Source: Gammaproteobacteria bacterium
Lineage (GTDB): Bacteria; Pseudomonadota; Gammaproteobacteria; UBA4575
Length of the DNA: 64,000 bases
Direction: 5' to 3'
Assembly (NCBI GenBank): GCA_028279275.1
Contig: JANQOB010000012.1
Location: 20,203 to 84,202, forward strand
Shown: piece after piece, positions 7,944 to 55,832 of the stretch
How positions within the stretch are numbered: the first letter of the stretch is position 1
Layout: the number at the start of each line of letters is the position of its first letter
Made by a program: the position numbers and the translations under genes
The notes under the pieces: generated by a model
Told to the model about the DNA's origin: nothing
The model's database searches: none
What the model saw: the letters and a program-made list of their open reading frames with translations, nothing else

Positions 7944-8750
7944 TTATTGATTGATTTTGAATGAGATGACGGATTTTGAATCGTTGTCTACAGGTTTGCC
8001 CATGCTCATGACTCCGCTTGTAATAAGAGTCTGTTCGTTTTTGGAGACGTGAATTTTTTGGCCGTTATCAAATTTAATGTAAGTTCCATTAAAACTATTA
8101 TCGGCTAAAAAGAATTTACCTTCTTTAAACGTAATTTTGGCATGTGCGCGTGACACAAATTTGCCTTGAACAACAATGTCGCAGCTTGGGTCACGTCCCA
8201 CCTGACAGCTTTCTTTTTCTCCTGTGACAACATGCTTTTTGCCTTTTAAAGAGAGCTCAATAGAAGCTTCTGGTTCACTTTTATCTATTGAAAGATCTGG
8301 CTCAGGTAATTCATCTTCAGGTGCAATATGAATTTCTGCAGATTCATCCATTTCTGCAATATCTTCGATTTTATTATTTTTAACAGCGTCTATATTTGTA
8401 GCATCTAAAATTTCATCTTCTAAATCTTTTATAGAAGATACGATATTAGATGATGCAGGCTCGTCATCTTTAAGGGCTTCTTCCAGTTCTCGTGCCCTTG
8501 TATCACTTATATCAATGGATGTGTTGCTGGGTTGTTTATTATCAGCAGAAACTGGAGTGGAAGTTGAATTTTCTTCTTGAGCTTCTTCCTCATCTACAGC
8601 ATTACGTCGGTCGACTTTTCTGCGGCGACTTTTAGTCACCAATACACCATCACTATCAATGAATGGATAGGTGACTTTGCGGCCCCAACGGCGGCGTTCA
8701 TTTTTTCTGCGCTCTTTCATGAAACAGGAGGATATACGTATAAACCCCAA
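7944..8750 (-). CDS. FHA-domain protein with N-terminal bipartite Arg-cluster module (paralog B); probable true start at internal Met (~8720)
   Basis: C-terminal FHA signature (CQVGRDPSCDIVV..VSRAHAKI..NGTYI). N-terminal ERRKNERRR...YPFIDSDGVLV..RRRKVDRR. Acidic, low-complexity linker between the two. Confidence 0.8.
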   Translation of the reverse strand: MGFIRISSCFMKERRKNERRRWGRKVTYPFIDSDGVLVTKSRRRKVDRRNAVDEEEAQEENSTSTPVSADNKQPSNTSIDISDTRARELEEALKDDEPASSNIVSSIKDLEDEILDATNIDAVKNNKIEDIAEMDESAEIHIAPEDELPEPDLSIDKSEPEASIELSLKGKKHVVTGEKESCQVGRDPSCDIVVQGKFVSRAHAKITFKEGKFFLADNSFNGTYIKFDNGQKIHVSKNEQTLITSGVMSMGKPVDNDSKSVISFKINQ

Positions 8751-8873
8751 AGTATGCGGAAATAGCTAACACTTTGAATAGCTTAAGACTATTCTACAGC
8801 CAGGTGGTAGAAACCGGCCGATTAATGTATCTAGAATCCTACTCGTTTTGGTTGTGAGTGAAGCTCAGATTGA

Positions 8874-9389
8874 TTACGGGCAGAAGTAGTGGATGACGTC
8901 TTTTTCTACGTATTCGATTGGGGTGCCGAGGCTGATAATCCCACTGCCGTGCAATTCCATTTTTTCACCCATTAAAAACATTTCACCTTCATCGTTTTTA
9001 ATATAGGTGCCATTGGTGCTGTGGTCTGTGACATGAAATATGCCATTTTCGAAACTAAAGCGGGCATGTTGTCTAGATGTGTAACGATTTTGAATTATCA
9101 CACCACAAGTTTGTGCGCGTCCTACAATGATTTCTTCAGTGTCAGGAAACAATTCACAAACGTCGTCTTTGTGCCACAAGAATAACCGTGTTGCCTCTGT
9201 TTCCTCTTTATCAATATCAGACTTGGTATCGTTCTGAATTTCGATGTTGTTGATTCTTCGGTCAGGAATTCTTCGTCGGTCTTCACGGACTAAAGTTTGA
9301 TCGCTATCGAAAAATGGAAACGGTGGGCTTTCGCTAGACTTGCGACGATCTTCAAGAGTTCTTCTTTCGTTAATGAATTCCGTGCCCAT
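8874..9389 (-). CDS. FHA-domain protein with N-terminal bipartite Arg-cluster module (paralog A)
   Basis: FHA signature (IIVGRAQTCGVII..TSRQHARF..NGTYI). N-terminal ERRTLEDRR..SPPFPFFDSDQTLV..DRRRIPDRR. Confidence 0.8.
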   Translation of the reverse strand: MGTEFINERRTLEDRRKSSESPPFPFFDSDQTLVREDRRRIPDRRINNIEIQNDTKSDIDKEETEATRLFLWHKDDVCELFPDTEEIIVGRAQTCGVIIQNRYTSRQHARFSFENGIFHVTDHSTNGTYIKNDEGEMFLMGEKMELHGSGIISLGTPIEYVEKDVIHYFCP

Positions 9390-9466: not shown

Positions 9467-9634
9467 TTATGTAATGATCAGTAAAGACTGAGTCAGTTGT
9501 GGTGCCCAGATTTTAAACATGGCGTACCCATAGGTTGCAAGACCTAAGAATAACCATATTGCGAGTAAAAAAATTGGAGAAACTTGTTGTTCCTCGAAGC
9601 TGGGTGTACTTGCGTTATCTACAAGTTGTGTCAT
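9467..9634 (-). CDS. Unannotated small membrane protein (55 aa: MTQLVDNASTPSFEEQQVSPIFLLAIWLFLGLATYGYAMFKIWAPQLTQSLLIIT)
   Basis: Hand-translated ORF below the 60-aa track cutoff. It has one strongly hydrophobic helix. Two stem-loops (gtaacac..gtgttac and ctcacg..cgtgag) lie just downstream of its stop. It is divergent from pcnB. Confidence 0.4.
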   Translation of the reverse strand: MTQLVDNASTPSFEEQQVSPIFLLAIWLFLGLATYGYAMFKIWAPQLTQSLLIIT

Positions 9635-19082: not shown

Positions 19083-20543
19083 GTGCAGCAGCATTTTTAT
19101 ACTGGCATTCAATCCAAAGCGAACAAAACTAGTCCAGCGAAAATACTCGTTCGCTCAATGTTAGCGCTATGCGCGCTCTCACTGCTGACATTGAGTTCTG
19201 TAGGTTCTGCTACCACGATTGCTAAAATAAACGATCTTCGCATTGCAGATCGTAAAACCGAAACCAGAGTGGTATTTGACCTGACATCACCTGTTAAGCA
19301 CAGCATATTCGTTCTCAAGAATCCTAACCGAGTTGTTTTAGACATAGATCAATGTGATGCAAATGGCAGACTTAATGCTAAGCATGTAAGGGGTACCTTA
19401 ATAAAAGATATCCGTTATGCACAAAAAAGTAATAAAAAGTTACGTGTAGTATTTGACTTAAATAGTACAGTCTCTCCAAAAAGTTTTTTACTTCCACCGC
19501 AAAGTGGTAAGTCTTATCGCCTCGTTATTGATTTAAGTGCTAACTCCAAACCCACACTCGTTGCGGGTCAAGGCAAAACAAATTCGACAACAGAAACGCA
19601 AAAGCCTCGTGTAGAACCTGTAGTGGCAATGAAGGATGCACCAGCGAGCCTACGAGATTTTGTTATCGCGATTGATGCAGGTCATGGAGGTAAAGATCCA
19701 GGTGCCATCGGACGTGGAGGGACATTTGAAAAAGATATCGTATTAGCTATTTCTAAACGATTGAAAAAGCTAATTGATGAAGAACCTGGAATGAAAGCGG
19801 TGATGATACGCAACGGAGATTTTTTTATACCTTTGCGAAGTAGAATTAAAAGAGCCAGTCAGTTGAATGCAGATGTTTTCCTATCGATTCATGCAGATGC
19901 AGCAGTAGACCGTCGTGCGAAAGGTTCCTCGGTTTATGTTTTATCACAGCATGGTGCTACCAGTGAGGCGGCTCGTATCTTGGCGCAGCGTGAAAATGCG
20001 GCGGACAAAGTTGGTGGAGTCAGTTTAGATGACAAAGACGATGTTTTGAAATCCGTGCTAGTTGATTTGTCTCAGACCGCCACTATCGATGCCAGTATCG
20101 ATTTAGCTGAAGATATTCTCGGTGAACTTGCTAAAGTCGGTAATATCCTGCGGAATAATGTGGAACAAGCGGGCTTCGCTGTGTTGAAGTCACCCGATAT
20201 TCCATCTGTGTTGGTGGAAACTGCTTTTATTTCAAATCCTGCTGAAGAAAAACGTTTGAAGACTTCTCAGCACCAACAAAAATTAGCAATCGCCATTCTT
20301 AGAGGTTTGCGTGTTTATATAAAAGATCATGCTCCAGCAAATGCAATTTTAGCGAGCACACAAACACCCATCTCACCTACTCAATATACTATTAAACGTG
20401 GTGATACTTTGTCTGGGATCGCGGTTCGTTATCAAGTCAGTCTTAGAGATTTGCGCAAAATTAATGGTTTGCGTTCCGACCTATTGAAAGTAGGGCAAGT
20501 ATTAACGATTCCCACTTCACCAAAGGTAACAGCGGGGACCTAA
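19083..20543 (+). CDS. amiB: N-acetylmuramoyl-L-alanine amidase (AMIN + Amidase_3 + C-terminal LysM)
   Basis: Signal peptide. Amidase_3 motifs (IDAGHGGKDPGA, SIHADA). C-terminal LysM (YTIKRGDTLSGIA). Occupies the amiB position of the E. coli cluster. Confidence 0.85.
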   Translation: MQQHFYTGIQSKANKTSPAKILVRSMLALCALSLLTLSSVGSATTIAKINDLRIADRKTETRVVFDLTSPVKHSIFVLKNPNRVVLDIDQCDANGRLNAKHVRGTLIKDIRYAQKSNKKLRVVFDLNSTVSPKSFLLPPQSGKSYRLVIDLSANSKPTLVAGQGKTNSTTETQKPRVEPVVAMKDAPASLRDFVIAIDAGHGGKDPGAIGRGGTFEKDIVLAISKRLKKLIDEEPGMKAVMIRNGDFFIPLRSRIKRASQLNADVFLSIHADAAVDRRAKGSSVYVLSQHGATSEAARILAQRENAADKVGGVSLDDKDDVLKSVLVDLSQTATIDASIDLAEDILGELAKVGNILRNNVEQAGFAVLKSPDIPSVLVETAFISNPAEEKRLKTSQHQQKLAIAILRGLRVYIKDHAPANAILASTQTPISPTQYTIKRGDTLSGIAVRYQVSLRDLRKINGLRSDLLKVGQVLTIPTSPKVTAGT

Positions 20544-34885: not shown

Positions 34886-35566
34886 TTATCTACGAGATTT
34901 AATCGTATCTTGTTTCATATTTTGAGCAAGCCATGCTTTGATTGGCCAAGGGAATATATTTTCTGACTTTGAAATGTCTTCCCATCCTAGCTCAACATAG
35001 CATTGATAAGCATCTGTACCATAAATATTTTGTACGTGTGTAGGTTTGCTTTCGCCTACTGAGTCACCTTTGACTTCTTCATCTCTAAATGCATAAAGAG
35101 TGGGCACTGCATCACATTGCTCGTTTGTTTGTAAAATGGTGATATACGCGCATTCAACGTTTTTACGATATAGCACTTGGTAATTAACAATTTCTAGGCT
35201 TTCAGAAACAGGTTTATTTTCAGCTATTTCTTCTGATTCGTCTTGCTGAAATTGTTTAAAGACTTCGTCAAATTCATGGTCACCGATATCTGCAGTAGTA
35301 ATTTCTAAGCCTTCTGTCCTGCGACGATCTCCAAATGTACGACGCTCTTTCTCTACTAACTCGCCCTGATTATTTTTTAGTGGAGGCGATTTTTTTTCAT
35401 TTTTGTTTCTACGGTCATCTCCAGATCTGCGATCGTATAGAGCCTTCATATACTTCCCTTTAAGTAATTCCCATATTGAGTGTGCGCAAAATTGTTTAAA
35501 ACCATACCAGTCATAGGAACTATAAATGCGAAGTAGGTCACATTGGGTCTTCCATTCAGTGGGCAA
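34886..35566 (-). CDS. Arg-cluster module protein (paralog C); probable start at internal Met (MKALYDRR..., ~35449)
   Basis: DRRSGDDRR..SPP..LVEKERRTFGDRRR matches the module of the two FHA proteins. Acidic middle region and a C-terminal domain of unknown function. Confidence 0.5.
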   Translation of the reverse strand: MPTEWKTQCDLLRIYSSYDWYGFKQFCAHSIWELLKGKYMKALYDRRSGDDRRNKNEKKSPPLKNNQGELVEKERRTFGDRRRTEGLEITTADIGDHEFDEVFKQFQQDESEEIAENKPVSESLEIVNYQVLYRKNVECAYITILQTNEQCDAVPTLYAFRDEEVKGDSVGESKPTHVQNIYGTDAYQCYVELGWEDISKSENIFPWPIKAWLAQNMKQDTIKSRR

Positions 35567-44877: not shown

Positions 44878-45375
44878 GTGAAGTCGTACGAACAATCTGA
44901 AGATTCAGTGAGCGATGCACAGCTTGCATTAGAACGTCGAGATCGTAGTGATCGGCGTCGACCTTCGTTTAAGGGATTTGTCTATGGGTTGTTTTTAGCT
45001 AGACGCCGTGGTCCACGACGCGCAGAAAATTTATATCAATATAGCGACTGGTATGACGTAAAGCTGTTGGTTTTATCGCTGAGTTTATTGTTGCTCTCTT
45101 GTTTAGACGCGGCTATGACAATGAAACTATTGTCTTTAGGGGCAGTGGAACTAAACCCTATTATGAATGAATTGATAAATCAGGGTACGCGTTATTTTAT
45201 TTGGATTAAAATTGCAGTTACAGCATTATGTATCGTCGTGTTAGTTGCACACAATCGCATTAAATTATTTAATTTTTTGCGTGTAGATGTGATGTTAATA
45301 ACTGCAGTTTTTATATATCTTGGATTAGTGACCTACGAGTTTTACCTTTATACTTTAGGCGCTCCTGCAGCTTAA
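44878..45375 (+). CDS. Membrane protein with N-terminal Arg-cluster module (paralog D); GTG start
   Basis: ERRDRSDRRR..FVYGLFLARRRGPRR followed by 3-4 hydrophobic helices. Confidence 0.5.
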   Translation: MKSYEQSEDSVSDAQLALERRDRSDRRRPSFKGFVYGLFLARRRGPRRAENLYQYSDWYDVKLLVLSLSLLLLSCLDAAMTMKLLSLGAVELNPIMNELINQGTRYFIWIKIAVTALCIVVLVAHNRIKLFNFLRVDVMLITAVFIYLGLVTYEFYLYTLGAPAA

Positions 45376-47355: not shown

Positions 47356-49209
47356 ATGACTAGTACTAATTCTGAAACTTTAACGTCTTTATACCGAAGG
47401 CTGGGGATTGTTGTTTTGGAACAGCGGCAAGATAAAAGCCTTTGGTTGATTTCGCCTATGCCTGATTGGTTTCCAATGTTAGCTGAGATAAACGAAGATT
47501 CTAAACAAAGCCAGGTAAGAGCTCTCAAGTCTAATGTTTTAAACTCTTTCGTTGAAAATGATGTTCAAAAGATGTGGTCCAGCGGTCAAGAGAGAAATGT
47601 ATCGTCCATTTGGATTGAATTGGATCCAGCAGAAAATAGTATTCCTTTTCAAGCAACGGCCTTGCGTCAAGTGGATAGCATGCTAATTATTATTGAACAT
47701 GTGCCTGACGCATATGAAGCAAAGCAATCGCAAGCAAAACAAATACGTGAAAACGATTTACTTAAAGAATTATTGGAAGGCAAAAAAGCTGAACAGGCTC
47801 AAAAAATTGCCTCGCGAGAAACAGAGTTAGAGCAGGAAATCAGAGAGCGGCGTGCTTTAGAAAAACAACTTACCCATCTTGCATTTCATGATTCGTTAAC
47901 AGGTTTACCAAATCGATCTCTATTTATCGATCGATTACAAAGATCCATTGCAGAGGCTGAACGAAAAAAAGAATCTGTAGTGGTGATGTTCATAGATTTG
48001 GATGACTTTAAAAAAGTGAATGATTCATTTGGTCATCATGTAGGTGATAAGGTAATTCAAAGCGCAGCATTACGTTTAAAAAAATGTTTGCGCGATATTG
48101 ATTCCATTGCTCGTTTGGGGGGTGACGAATTCACCTTGCTTGTACCACATATAGGTGAACGTGAGGATATAGAAATTATTGCCAGGAGGCTTATTGAATC
48201 CTTAGATGAGCCGATTATCGCGGAGGGTAATGAATTTCGCATGTCGATCAGTATTGGGATTTCAGTTTATCCCAATGATGCCAGCAACGAAGATAATTTA
48301 TTGCGCAATGCAGATACAGCTATGTATTTTGCTAAACATACCCGAGGCCCAAGCTACAAGTTTTATGAGGCAGATATGGGTACTTCGCCATCAAAACGCT
48401 TGGCTTTAGTTTCTGATATCGAGTTGGCATTGCAACAAAAAGAATTTTTCTTGGTTTATCAGCCTATCGTCAATGTGCAGAATATGGAAGTGATGGGTGC
48501 TGAAGCCTTATTGCGTTGGCGGCGTTCAGATGGCGAAATTGTAGAACCTGATCGATTCGTGCCGTTGGCTTGTGAATCGGAACTGATTGTCAAAATTGGT
48601 GTATGGGTGATTAATCAGAGTTGTAATCAACTCAGAAACTGGCGTGGTATTTACGGTGATAAATTTAGAATGATAATAAATTTATCTTTACGTGAACTGG
48701 AGTCTAAAAAGTGTAGAGAAACTTTACGCGAGCAGATGGAAAATATGAATTTACCTCCTGGTTCATTGGAAGTGGAAATTACCGACACAGCACCGATTGA
48801 AAATTCAAACATAATGCAAACGAATGTCGATTTTCTAAAAAGTTTGCATGTCTCAACTGCTATTAATCATTTTGGTGACCGTCAAACTTCTTTGAAGTCC
48901 ATAAAATCGCTTGGGTTACATTCCATAAAAATAGATCGATATTTTTTAAATGGTATTGAATCTGATCAAGATAGTTATGATGTGTTTAATGGTATTGTAA
49001 AACTAAGCTTATCTTTATCAGATAATGTGTTAGTTGAGGGAATTGAGAGCAAAAAACAGCTTGATATCATTCGAAATATGGATGTTAGAGAAGCACAAGG
49101 ATTCTTTTTCACACAACCATTAGAGTCGCACTTTTTTGATCAGTGGATGAAGGAGTTTGATAAAAAACAAAAAACTCAACTCAAGCTTGTGAAGCAAGAG
49201 AAAGCATAG
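47356..49209 (+). CDS. Diguanylate cyclase/phosphodiesterase (sensor-GGDEF-EAL)
   Basis: GGDEF motif intact (ARLGGDEFTLL) and EAL motif intact (EALLRW). Coiled-coil linker and an N-terminal sensor-like region. Confidence 0.85.
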   Translation: MTSTNSETLTSLYRRLGIVVLEQRQDKSLWLISPMPDWFPMLAEINEDSKQSQVRALKSNVLNSFVENDVQKMWSSGQERNVSSIWIELDPAENSIPFQATALRQVDSMLIIIEHVPDAYEAKQSQAKQIRENDLLKELLEGKKAEQAQKIASRETELEQEIRERRALEKQLTHLAFHDSLTGLPNRSLFIDRLQRSIAEAERKKESVVVMFIDLDDFKKVNDSFGHHVGDKVIQSAALRLKKCLRDIDSIARLGGDEFTLLVPHIGEREDIEIIARRLIESLDEPIIAEGNEFRMSISIGISVYPNDASNEDNLLRNADTAMYFAKHTRGPSYKFYEADMGTSPSKRLALVSDIELALQQKEFFLVYQPIVNVQNMEVMGAEALLRWRRSDGEIVEPDRFVPLACESELIVKIGVWVINQSCNQLRNWRGIYGDKFRMIINLSLRELESKKCRETLREQMENMNLPPGSLEVEITDTAPIENSNIMQTNVDFLKSLHVSTAINHFGDRQTSLKSIKSLGLHSIKIDRYFLNGIESDQDSYDVFNGIVKLSLSLSDNVLVEGIESKKQLDIIRNMDVREAQGFFFTQPLESHFFDQWMKEFDKKQKTQLKLVKQEKA

Positions 49210-55435: not shown

Positions 55436-55512
55436 TGGTGCCCCGAGTAGGAGTCGAACCTACGACCTTCCCCTTAGGAGGGGGACGCTCTATCCAGCTG
55501 AGCTATCGGGGC
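55436..55512 (-). tRNA. tRNA-Arg (anticodon CCU)
   Basis: Hand-folded. Acceptor GCCCCGA/TCGGGGC, D arm GCTC-AGCTGGATA-GAGC, anticodon arm TCCCC-CTCCTAA-GGGGA, T arm GTAGG-TTCGACT-CCTAC. CCA is encoded. Confidence 0.85.
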
Positions 55513-55746: not shown

Positions 55747-55832
55747 GGTGCCGAGGGAGAGAATCGAACTCTCACTCTGTTTCCAGAACCGGATTTTGAA
55801 TCCGGCGCGTCTACCAGTTCCGCCACCCCGGC
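55747..55832 (-). tRNA. tRNA-Leu (anticodon CAA)
   Basis: Revcomp reads GCCGGGGTGGCGGAACTGGTAGACGCGCCGGATTCAAAATCCGG + long variable arm + GAGAGTTCGATTCTCTCCCTCGGCACCA, a class II tRNA. Confidence 0.9.

Follow-up and report, generated by a model that had tools for sequence, protein, structure and literature searches.

Do the four proteins with arginine-cluster N-termini in one 64,000-nucleotide stretch of gammaproteobacterial DNA share a true domain and, if so, what might it bind? The stretch, referred to below as the window, covers positions 20,203 to 84,202 of contig JANQOB010000012.1 (Gammaproteobacteria bacterium, GenBank assembly GCA_028279275.1). Two adjacent genes in it encode the FHA proteins A and B, and the original prediction held that these share a short module, two pairs of arginine clusters, with two further proteins, C and D. 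The four open reading frames (ORFs) and the peptide strings quoted for them are all found in the sequence. Our profile searches and shuffling experiments bear the claim out for A, B and C, which almost certainly share a genuine, undescribed domain family; no profile test supports the inclusion of D.

Translated in all six frames, the window contains 34 [DE]RR triplets, 13 of which are confined to the sites in the four proteins, and there is no fifth cluster. The triads of A and C are spaced identically, with 18 nucleotides inside each pair and 87 from pair to pair. A profile was constructed from the N-termini of 62 orthologs of A only and searched against 956 ORFs of the window; it identified B (E = 2.6e-13) and C (E = 2.1e-6), with D at E = 6.6. 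A second profile, made from 121 proteins of which none derives from the window, matched A at E = 1e-20, B at E = 4.7e-15 and C at E = 2e-13. D was not reported by this profile at the limit of E = 1.

The residues of each module were also permuted 2000 times per protein with the composition kept. Not one of the 2000 shuffles reached the real score for A (71.9 bits, shuffle maximum 12.9), B (54.4 bits, shuffle maximum 15.0) or C (46.1 bits, shuffle maximum 13.6). The score of D is 4.7 bits against a shuffle maximum of 8.8, and it was reached by 28 of the 2000 shuffles (1.4%). Moreover, the alignment of D to the module profile is limited to the first pair, ERR-x3-DRR (ERRDRSDRR). Taking a significant match over both arginine pairs to define the family, A, B and C belong to it, each being significant against the profile without window sequences, and D does not.

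The original prediction named a low-complexity coincidence of arginine-rich N-termini as one observation that would undo it. As a general explanation of the resemblance this is extremely improbable, since for A, B and C, homologs included, it is ruled out by the profile E-values, the shuffles, conservation over hundreds of sequences and synonymous divergence. For D alone a coincidence would serve: the profile score is marginal, over one in a hundred shuffles match it and a single arginine pair is aligned. D, as judged from its sequence, appears to share the arginine clusters only; it is not supported as a family member and its N-terminus would be at most a functional analogue of the module. 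We also considered, and rejected, a DNA-level repeat or mobile element. The copies in A, B and C align poorly as DNA beyond the forced positions, and identity is kept at the protein level only; because the arginine codons differ between the copies there is no DNA repeat.

The module is approximately 45 residues long and runs from [DE]RR-x3-[DE]RR through an [FY]P..DS.G.LV hairpin to [DN]RR-x2-P-[DE]RR-(L/I).N(I/L).V. Its layout is one of four [D/E]RR triads, in two pairs that flank the short β-hairpin, followed by the (L/I).N(I/L).V strand. The consensus of 387 module instances is [DE]RR-x3-[DE]RR-x-[WF]-x5-[FY]P[FL]xDSxGxLVxx[DN]RRxxP[DE]RR[LI]xN[IL]xV. From the first to the fourth, the triads are conserved in 60-74%, 92-95%, 98-100% and 98-99% of these instances, and P22, G28 and V31 in 92, 80 and 78%, respectively. 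The second triad is followed by W or F in 56% of modules; the last triad alone has a preceding proline (62%), and RRxxN is found after it. As in C, the module of many members leads into an amphipathic helix of acidic character (EEF..F..F). Variants without the hairpin also occur (L077 1179-1613, L089 4925-5374, L064 5704-6162 and L092 1704-2342; also in L011, L031, L037 and L046), some of which comprise two repeats per chain.

Conservation within orthologous groups follows the same residues. In 21 orthologs of A, R9, R10, R15, R16, P25, D28, R38, R39 and R44 of the module are invariant, and G90, R91, S105, R106 and H108 of the FHA domain are nearly so. In 16 orthologs of C the four arginine pairs are invariant, whereas the central hairpin is degenerate and in some is deleted. 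Compared with the orthologs of A, the window copy shows 11-22 synonymous changes and few replacements over the 44 module codons. In the most distant orthologs (L002, L087 and L094), 13-18 non-synonymous changes fall on the 44 module codons, compared with 33-37 on 60 codons in the core of the FHA domain. Conservation of the module thus exceeds that of its FHA partner, and the substitution counts indicate that selection on it acts at the protein level.

The assignment of A and B as FHA proteins is secure. PF00498 is found at 46.6 bits (E = 4.8e-12) in A and 55.3 bits (E = 9.3e-15) in B, above the Pfam gathering score of 20.7, and the GR, SRxH and NG residues are readable in both. An AlphaFold2 model of A has a mean predicted local distance difference test (pLDDT) score of 80, with the FHA domain above 90 and the linker disordered. 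The module part consists of a two-strand hairpin (residues 26-27 and 33-34) with pLDDT ~83 and poorly defined arginine arms at 51-59; in the predicted model of C the module is likewise of low confidence. Foldseek placed the FHA domain of A closest to ArnA, Rv1747 FHA-1, GarA/OdhI and MDC1, and the top matches are FHA structures. The closest relatives of this FHA domain that lack the module (P0070-P0082) are proteins of ~300 residues in which an FHA domain is combined with a class III adenylate/guanylate cyclase domain.

How large is the family? An exhaustive HMMER search with a 16-sequence module alignment against 1.84 billion representative proteins gave 502 clusters (50% identity) at E<=1e-3, and 52 at E<=1e-10. 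The majority of members are stand-alone proteins of 55-100 residues in which the module is nearly the entire protein, and the source-given name of every one of these is 'hypothetical protein'. In other forms the module is preceded by a helix or a transmembrane segment at the N-terminus, is present twice per chain or is followed by a C-terminal FHA domain. The description of a portable unit fused to different partners is thus borne out. The N-terminal placement initially proposed is not: since most members are the module alone or carry it at the C-terminal end, it is not chiefly an N-terminal tag. In a set of 37 longer module proteins, FHA is the sole Pfam domain found, in 20. In four C-type members (P0322, P0328, P0332 and P0351) the module and a helix are followed by a hydrophobic, apparently transmembrane stretch and then by a C-terminal domain rich in Cys, an arrangement which recalls anti-sigma or ToxR-like transmembrane signalling proteins.

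That the module corresponds to no named domain, as first suggested, is upheld by library searches. No model in Pfam, NCBIfam, PHROGs or PADLOC matched any of 121 members, isolated modules gave no Pfam match even at E<=10 and the family profile had no match among PDB sequences. The best PDB hit was to the N-terminus of Prp8 (residues 98-120 of chain A, PDB 9r8v), which looks like the front half of the module; at E = 4.9 it was taken as chance. The domain family is new to the libraries searched, yet its mechanism may still be a variant of known arginine-rich clamps.

The taxonomic range was surveyed with a degenerate DNA pattern, DRRxxPDRR.xNI (~37 bits), across 185,579 species, each represented by a single genome. 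It gave 103 stretches, and in 93 of these a module was confirmed by hidden Markov model. The ten unconfirmed stretches are from unrelated phyla and their number is near the ~8 chance matches expected by a hand estimate from information content and collection size. Together with loci L001-L006, which had been fetched earlier, the confirmed stretches make up 99 module loci with 128 module ORFs. The confirmed loci belong to metagenome-assembled genomes (MAGs) of Gammaproteobacteria or Pseudomonadota (Thiotrichales, Ectothiorhodospiraceae, Thioalkalivibrio, Thiohalobacter, Arenicellales and unclassified groups), except for four contigs labelled Halobacteria archaeon; these carry a hairpin-less variant and may be mis-binned. 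There is no cultured isolate among the confirmed genomic loci. The number of copies per genome ranges from several to ~12, the Mix_sand03 MAG having ~12 modules by the narrow pattern alone. A tblastn search of plasmid and phage collections with the consensus module gave no match. The sole cultured-organism name is that of one stand-alone member, P0295, labelled Kaarinaea lacus (Nostocales cyanobacterium) and located on a 5.8-kb contig; it may reflect contamination from an associated bacterium or a true occurrence beyond Gammaproteobacteria.

We were intrigued by the tendency of module genes to occur in twos. Adjacent same-strand pairs are present in 26 of the 99 loci, comprising 12 FHA pairs and 14 small pairs; the latter fall into a few recurring types, each of which combines two different subfamilies. 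Four ORFs have two modules in one chain. On the basis of these pairs and two-module ORFs we argue for joint action of two modules. The order A then B is retained throughout the 12 FHA-pair loci, with flanking genes that differ in distant relatives, and a homologous ORF for a small membrane protein lies directly upstream of FHA-A in every one of them (L001 9702-9896, L002 9755-9952, L045, L070, L071, L075, L087, L094, L099, L104, L028 and L098). The gene is present even where A is only ~47% identical, the distant loci L002, L087 and L094 included. Its occurrence upstream of A at every FHA-pair locus defines a three-gene cassette of small membrane protein, FHA-A and FHA-B.

What might such a module bind? 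Tentatively, and largely by analogy, we suggest that modules may work in pairs as clamps that fold on binding a guanine nucleotide, a reading which we regard as possible but short of even likelihood. The arginine arms would be disordered on their own and would fold around an anionic guanine-containing ligand, for which an oligomer of cyclic di-GMP (c-di-GMP) is the leading candidate. Two modules, from adjacent genes or from one chain, would act together on the ligand oligomer. In the FHA cassette the output would be that ligand binding brings, or holds, two phospho-threonine-binding FHA domains together. The fuller version of this idea is somewhat more doubtful. It would make the module a new class of receptor for c-di-GMP or a related guanine nucleotide, a four-triad [D/E]RR clamp in the form of a ligand-glued pair, distributed in uncultured sulfur-cycle-type Gammaproteobacteria at up to a dozen per genome, with the FHA fusions providing the first direct link between a second messenger and phospho-threonine.

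Several observations are consistent with a clamp of this kind. Asp or Glu and Arg have the side chains that recognize guanine at its Watson-Crick and Hoogsteen edges, and an acidic residue followed by two arginines, repeated four times, is the invariant unit of the module. The model of A, with its better defined hairpin and poorly defined arms, fits folding on binding. As noted originally, a GGDEF-EAL gene is present in the window; this is context, in that the organism has c-di-GMP enzymes. In addition, one module subfamily is divergent from a GGDEF-EAL gene in six genomes. The C-terminal domain of BldD, with its RxD-x8-RxxD signature, offers a model for the proposed pair: a c-di-GMP oligomer is gripped by Arg and Asp motifs from two subunits, whose dimerization it drives itself, a two-subunit, ligand-glued clamp like that envisaged for paired modules. 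In BldD, however, the motifs lie in the folded helical domain of a helix-turn-helix (HTH) regulator from Actinobacteria, and there is no sequence relation.

The idea of a nucleotide second messenger gains a published precedent, by analogy only, in the C-terminal arginine-rich region (ARR) of CleD from Caulobacter, a linear peptide of 19-36 residues that is unfolded when free (Nesper 2017, PMC5677366; Hee 2020, PMC7382256). It comprises a small hairpin platform, then GP-DRR and, 11 residues on, (R/K)RxxD. The peptide wraps an intercalated c-di-GMP dimer (2:1, Kd 20-180 nM), with the Asp of DRR reading guanine N1 and two Arg reading the Hoogsteen edges, and it stays active when grafted onto other proteins (PMC5677366, PMC7382256). 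In our literature searches the Cle ARR papers were the sole relevant lead, and no paper on DUF5658 or the module motif was found. The likenesses are several. Both are short, portable, arginine-rich units with a DRR triad, a β-hairpin, conserved aromatics and tandem arginine motifs, and a local pattern G-x-D-R-R-x-aromatic is common to the two. The DRR motif of the Cle peptides has its counterpart in three of the four triads, which are [DE]RR in 92-100% of the 387 instances. The free ARR is unfolded and the module arms, modelled with low confidence, are probably disordered.

The two also differ. The Cle peptides have two motifs, either DRR-x11-(R/K)RxxD or [Y/F]xGP[D/E][R/K]R twice, whereas the module has four triads, 6 residues apart within pairs. 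The position frequencies of the module contain neither (R/K)RxxD 11 residues after DRR nor the tandem [Y/F]xGP[D/E][R/K]R, and there is no Y/F-x-G-P; the closest counterpart is the RRxxN that follows the last triad. The hairpin precedes the arginine motifs in the ARR but lies between the pairs in the module. The ARR is C-terminal to CheY-like receivers of Alphaproteobacteria, while in Gammaproteobacteria the module stands alone or precedes FHA. PilZ (PF07238) provides a second comparison. Its arginine motif, RRxxxR, is on a flexible N-terminal arm and D/NxSxxG on a strand, and the family includes stand-alone receptors and varied fused outputs; modules of A- and B-type hold RRxxxR within (D/S)RRRxx DRR, plus DS.G in the hairpin. 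PilZ is nevertheless a β-barrel of ~100 residues against ~45 for the module, in which there are 11 residues between the second triad and the conserved Asp (D25), and no PilZ match was found in Pfam at E<=1 for full proteins or E<=10 for isolated modules.

A number of results weigh against a nucleotide clamp. The triad spacing of 6 within a pair is unlike DRR-x11-(R/K)RxxD, and hhalign of the family alignment with CSP1 of CleD gave a probability of 1.3% over eight columns, with no detectable homology. No fusion of the module to a c-di-GMP-related domain was seen, and clustering of 1643 neighbouring ORFs revealed only local synteny and no general partner gene. A GGDEF or EAL gene is near the module in nine of the 99 loci (764 kb), and six of the nine form one synteny group; this is roughly the background rate that would be expected, on general grounds, for gammaproteobacterial genomes. 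Hairpin-less subfamilies retain the triads and an LNNI.VEW strand, so that the hairpin is dispensable there.

Nucleic acid would be an alternative ligand. The module could be an arginine-rich RNA- or DNA-binding element, the paired modules forming a small β-sheet with the arms gripping nucleic acid and the FHA fusions recruiting phospho-proteins. Arginine makes up ~15% of the stand-alone proteins, the median net charge of which is +4, the pair organization suits dimeric nucleic-acid binders and Asp/Arg pairs read guanine in RNA as well. The ToxR-like or anti-sigma layout of some C-type members, with a transmembrane helix and Cys-rich domain, would also suit, as would the RNA-metabolism neighbours in the window: A and B are beside pcnB and hslR (Hsp15), and C is divergent from rnr-rlmB-rpsF-rpsR both there and in three orthologous loci that were fetched. 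The adjacency to pcnB and rnr, however, is part of broad synteny, the entire rnr region being syntenic, and is absent for most family members. Short arginine clusters that fold on target binding are known in lambda N and HIV Tat/Rev, but those are strongly basic and without an obligatory acidic residue before the arginine pairs, a hairpin or paired genes. In the module an acidic residue stands before every arginine pair and many members have acidic tails, which leaves the charge only mildly positive. No fusion to HTH, KH, S1 or another nucleic-acid domain was found, and Rfam has no element near the module genes in the window, the two tRNAs being the only matches. On balance we consider binding to nucleic acid unlikely.

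The architecture of A raises another prospect, that the module is a protein docking or regulatory tail, phosphorylated and bound by FHA in cis or in trans as in GarA/OdhI, DgcB and MDC1, with the stand-alone copies as decoys or adaptors. A is built like GarA/OdhI (tail of ~45 residues, linker and canonical FHA domain, 171 residues in total), its FHA domain is structurally nearest to ArnA, Rv1747, GarA/OdhI and MDC1, the phospho-threonine-binding residues are intact and FHA is the sole domain fused. The FHA domain of Bdellovibrio DgcB takes the phosphorylated N-terminal tail of the same protein as its ligand and is thereby activated (PMC6733907). T32 is nearly invariant in A-type modules, and the pLDDT of 83 for the hairpin could reflect packing. 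Against this, an FHA domain is lacking from the majority of the family, it is Arg and Asp, not Ser or Thr, that are invariant, and no GarA-type ETTS motif is present in module sequences; the tails of GarA/OdhI, DgcB and MDC1 are Thr-rich phospho-acceptor peptides. The suggestion that Ser/Thr residues of the module feed the FHA domains looks weak from the alignments, because only A-type proteins keep a near-invariant Thr; it is not conserved in other modules and position 29 is variable. The absence of a Ser/Thr kinase or PP2C in the window, noted originally, was reproduced: a weak regular-expression test for Hanks-kinase and PP2C motifs found none there or in 764 kb of related loci. A docking tail is an explanation to which we give a low probability. 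Less probable still is a purely structural or anchoring element, e.g. a hairpin for dimerization or an element that binds polyphosphate or anionic membranes, without a specific ligand. Conserved heterotypic pairs, two-module proteins, three short strands with alternating hydrophobics that need a packing partner, membrane-anchored variants and an FHA cassette that always opens with a small membrane protein gene would be in keeping with such a role. However, the near-total invariance of four [DE]RR triads, acid included, exceeds the needs of electrostatic anchoring, and since the triads persist in hairpin-less variants it is they, not the hairpin, that form the core.

Whichever ligand applies, this is a sizeable protein family (502 clusters, up to ~12 copies per genome) outside all the domain libraries searched. 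It has seemingly been overlooked because the genomic matches are all MAGs and only one protein match bears the name of a cultured organism. Small and under strong constraint, the module is better conserved than the FHA domain fused to it, and it therefore presents a functional unit worth testing. If nucleotide binding is true, then this would be a new receptor type that places FHA/phospho-threonine signalling under second-messenger control. With c-di-GMP or another nucleotide as ligand it would also be a second natural minimal linear peptide clamp of the type put forward in the CleD work as a basis for sensors and for sequestering tools. If the target is RNA, DNA or protein instead, the family is still a new group of small-protein regulators with a conserved paired-gene logic.

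Table 1. Positions of the module proteins and associated features in the window
Feature	Coordinates	Strand	Details
FHA-protein interval	7944..9389	-	Two genes, A and B
Protein A, 171 residues	8874..9389	-	N-terminal module, ~20-residue linker, canonical FHA domain
Module copy in A (residues 8-51)	9237..9368	-	ERRTLEDRR...FPFFDSDQTLVREDRRRIPDRRINNIEI
FHA domain of A (Pfam residues 87-155)	8925..9131	-	Canonical GR, SRxH and NG phospho-threonine-binding residues
Protein B, 258 residues	7944..8720	-	Module, ~130-residue acidic low-complexity linker, FHA domain
Module copy in B	8604..8714	-	ERRKNERRRWGRKVTYPFIDSDGVLVTKSRRRKVDRR
FHA domain core of B (Pfam best stretch)	8037..8204	-	PF00498, E = 9.3e-15
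Protein C, 187 residues	34886..35449	-	Module, amphipathic helix (EFDEVFKQFQ), orphan alpha/beta C-terminal domain
Module copy in C, degenerate hairpin	35318..35434	-	DRRSGDDRR...SPPLKNNQGELVEKERRTFGDRRR
Protein D, DUF5658 membrane protein	44878..45375	+	PF18902 at residues 71-154
N-terminal arginine clusters of D	44932..45030	+	Unsupported as a module copy
GGDEF-EAL protein	47356..49209	+	phmmer, GGDEF query E = 2.9e-31, EAL query E = 4.3e-18
Gene for 55-residue single-pass membrane protein	9467..9634	-	MTQLV...LLAIWLFLGLATYGYAMFKIWAPQLTQSLLIIT; first gene of the FHA cassette
Two tRNA genes	55439..55512, 55749..55832	-	Sole Rfam matches in the window

The features of the window, the G+C content of which is 39%, are listed in Table 1. 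The translation of B likely begins at ATG 8720 rather than at TTG 8750, the start of the longest ORF, because orthologs of B begin just ahead of the module. That of C probably begins at ATG 35449, not TTG 35566, since a database protein of 187 residues is 100% identical to C. The match of D to PF18902 (DUF5658) is at E = 6.8e-16 and 59.3 bits, compared with a cut-off of 25.2, and the arginine-rich N-terminus is outside the model.

The upstream regions of 125 module genes were compared for a promoter or regulatory motif in common, an idea which we rejected: sigma-54-like sites are absent, and the 8-mers that are enriched seem to reflect common descent of orthologous loci rather than a shared motif. 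A promoter and terminator scan of the FHA cassette performed no better than shuffles. The membrane protein that opens the cassette has no Pfam match at E<=10; its C-terminal tail, PQLTQSL, guessed to be cytoplasmic, would fit a pTxxL FHA ligand (pT, phospho-threonine), which is speculation. Finally, the stand-alone subfamily that neighbours a GGDEF-EAL gene (L007 2673-4419, L009, L027, L038, L088 and L097) is separated by 150-250 bp from the divergent gene, which encodes a protein of 434 residues with no other Pfam domain. In this synteny group the GGDEF-EAL gene is followed by that for a conserved protein of 107-118 residues, itself without a Pfam match.

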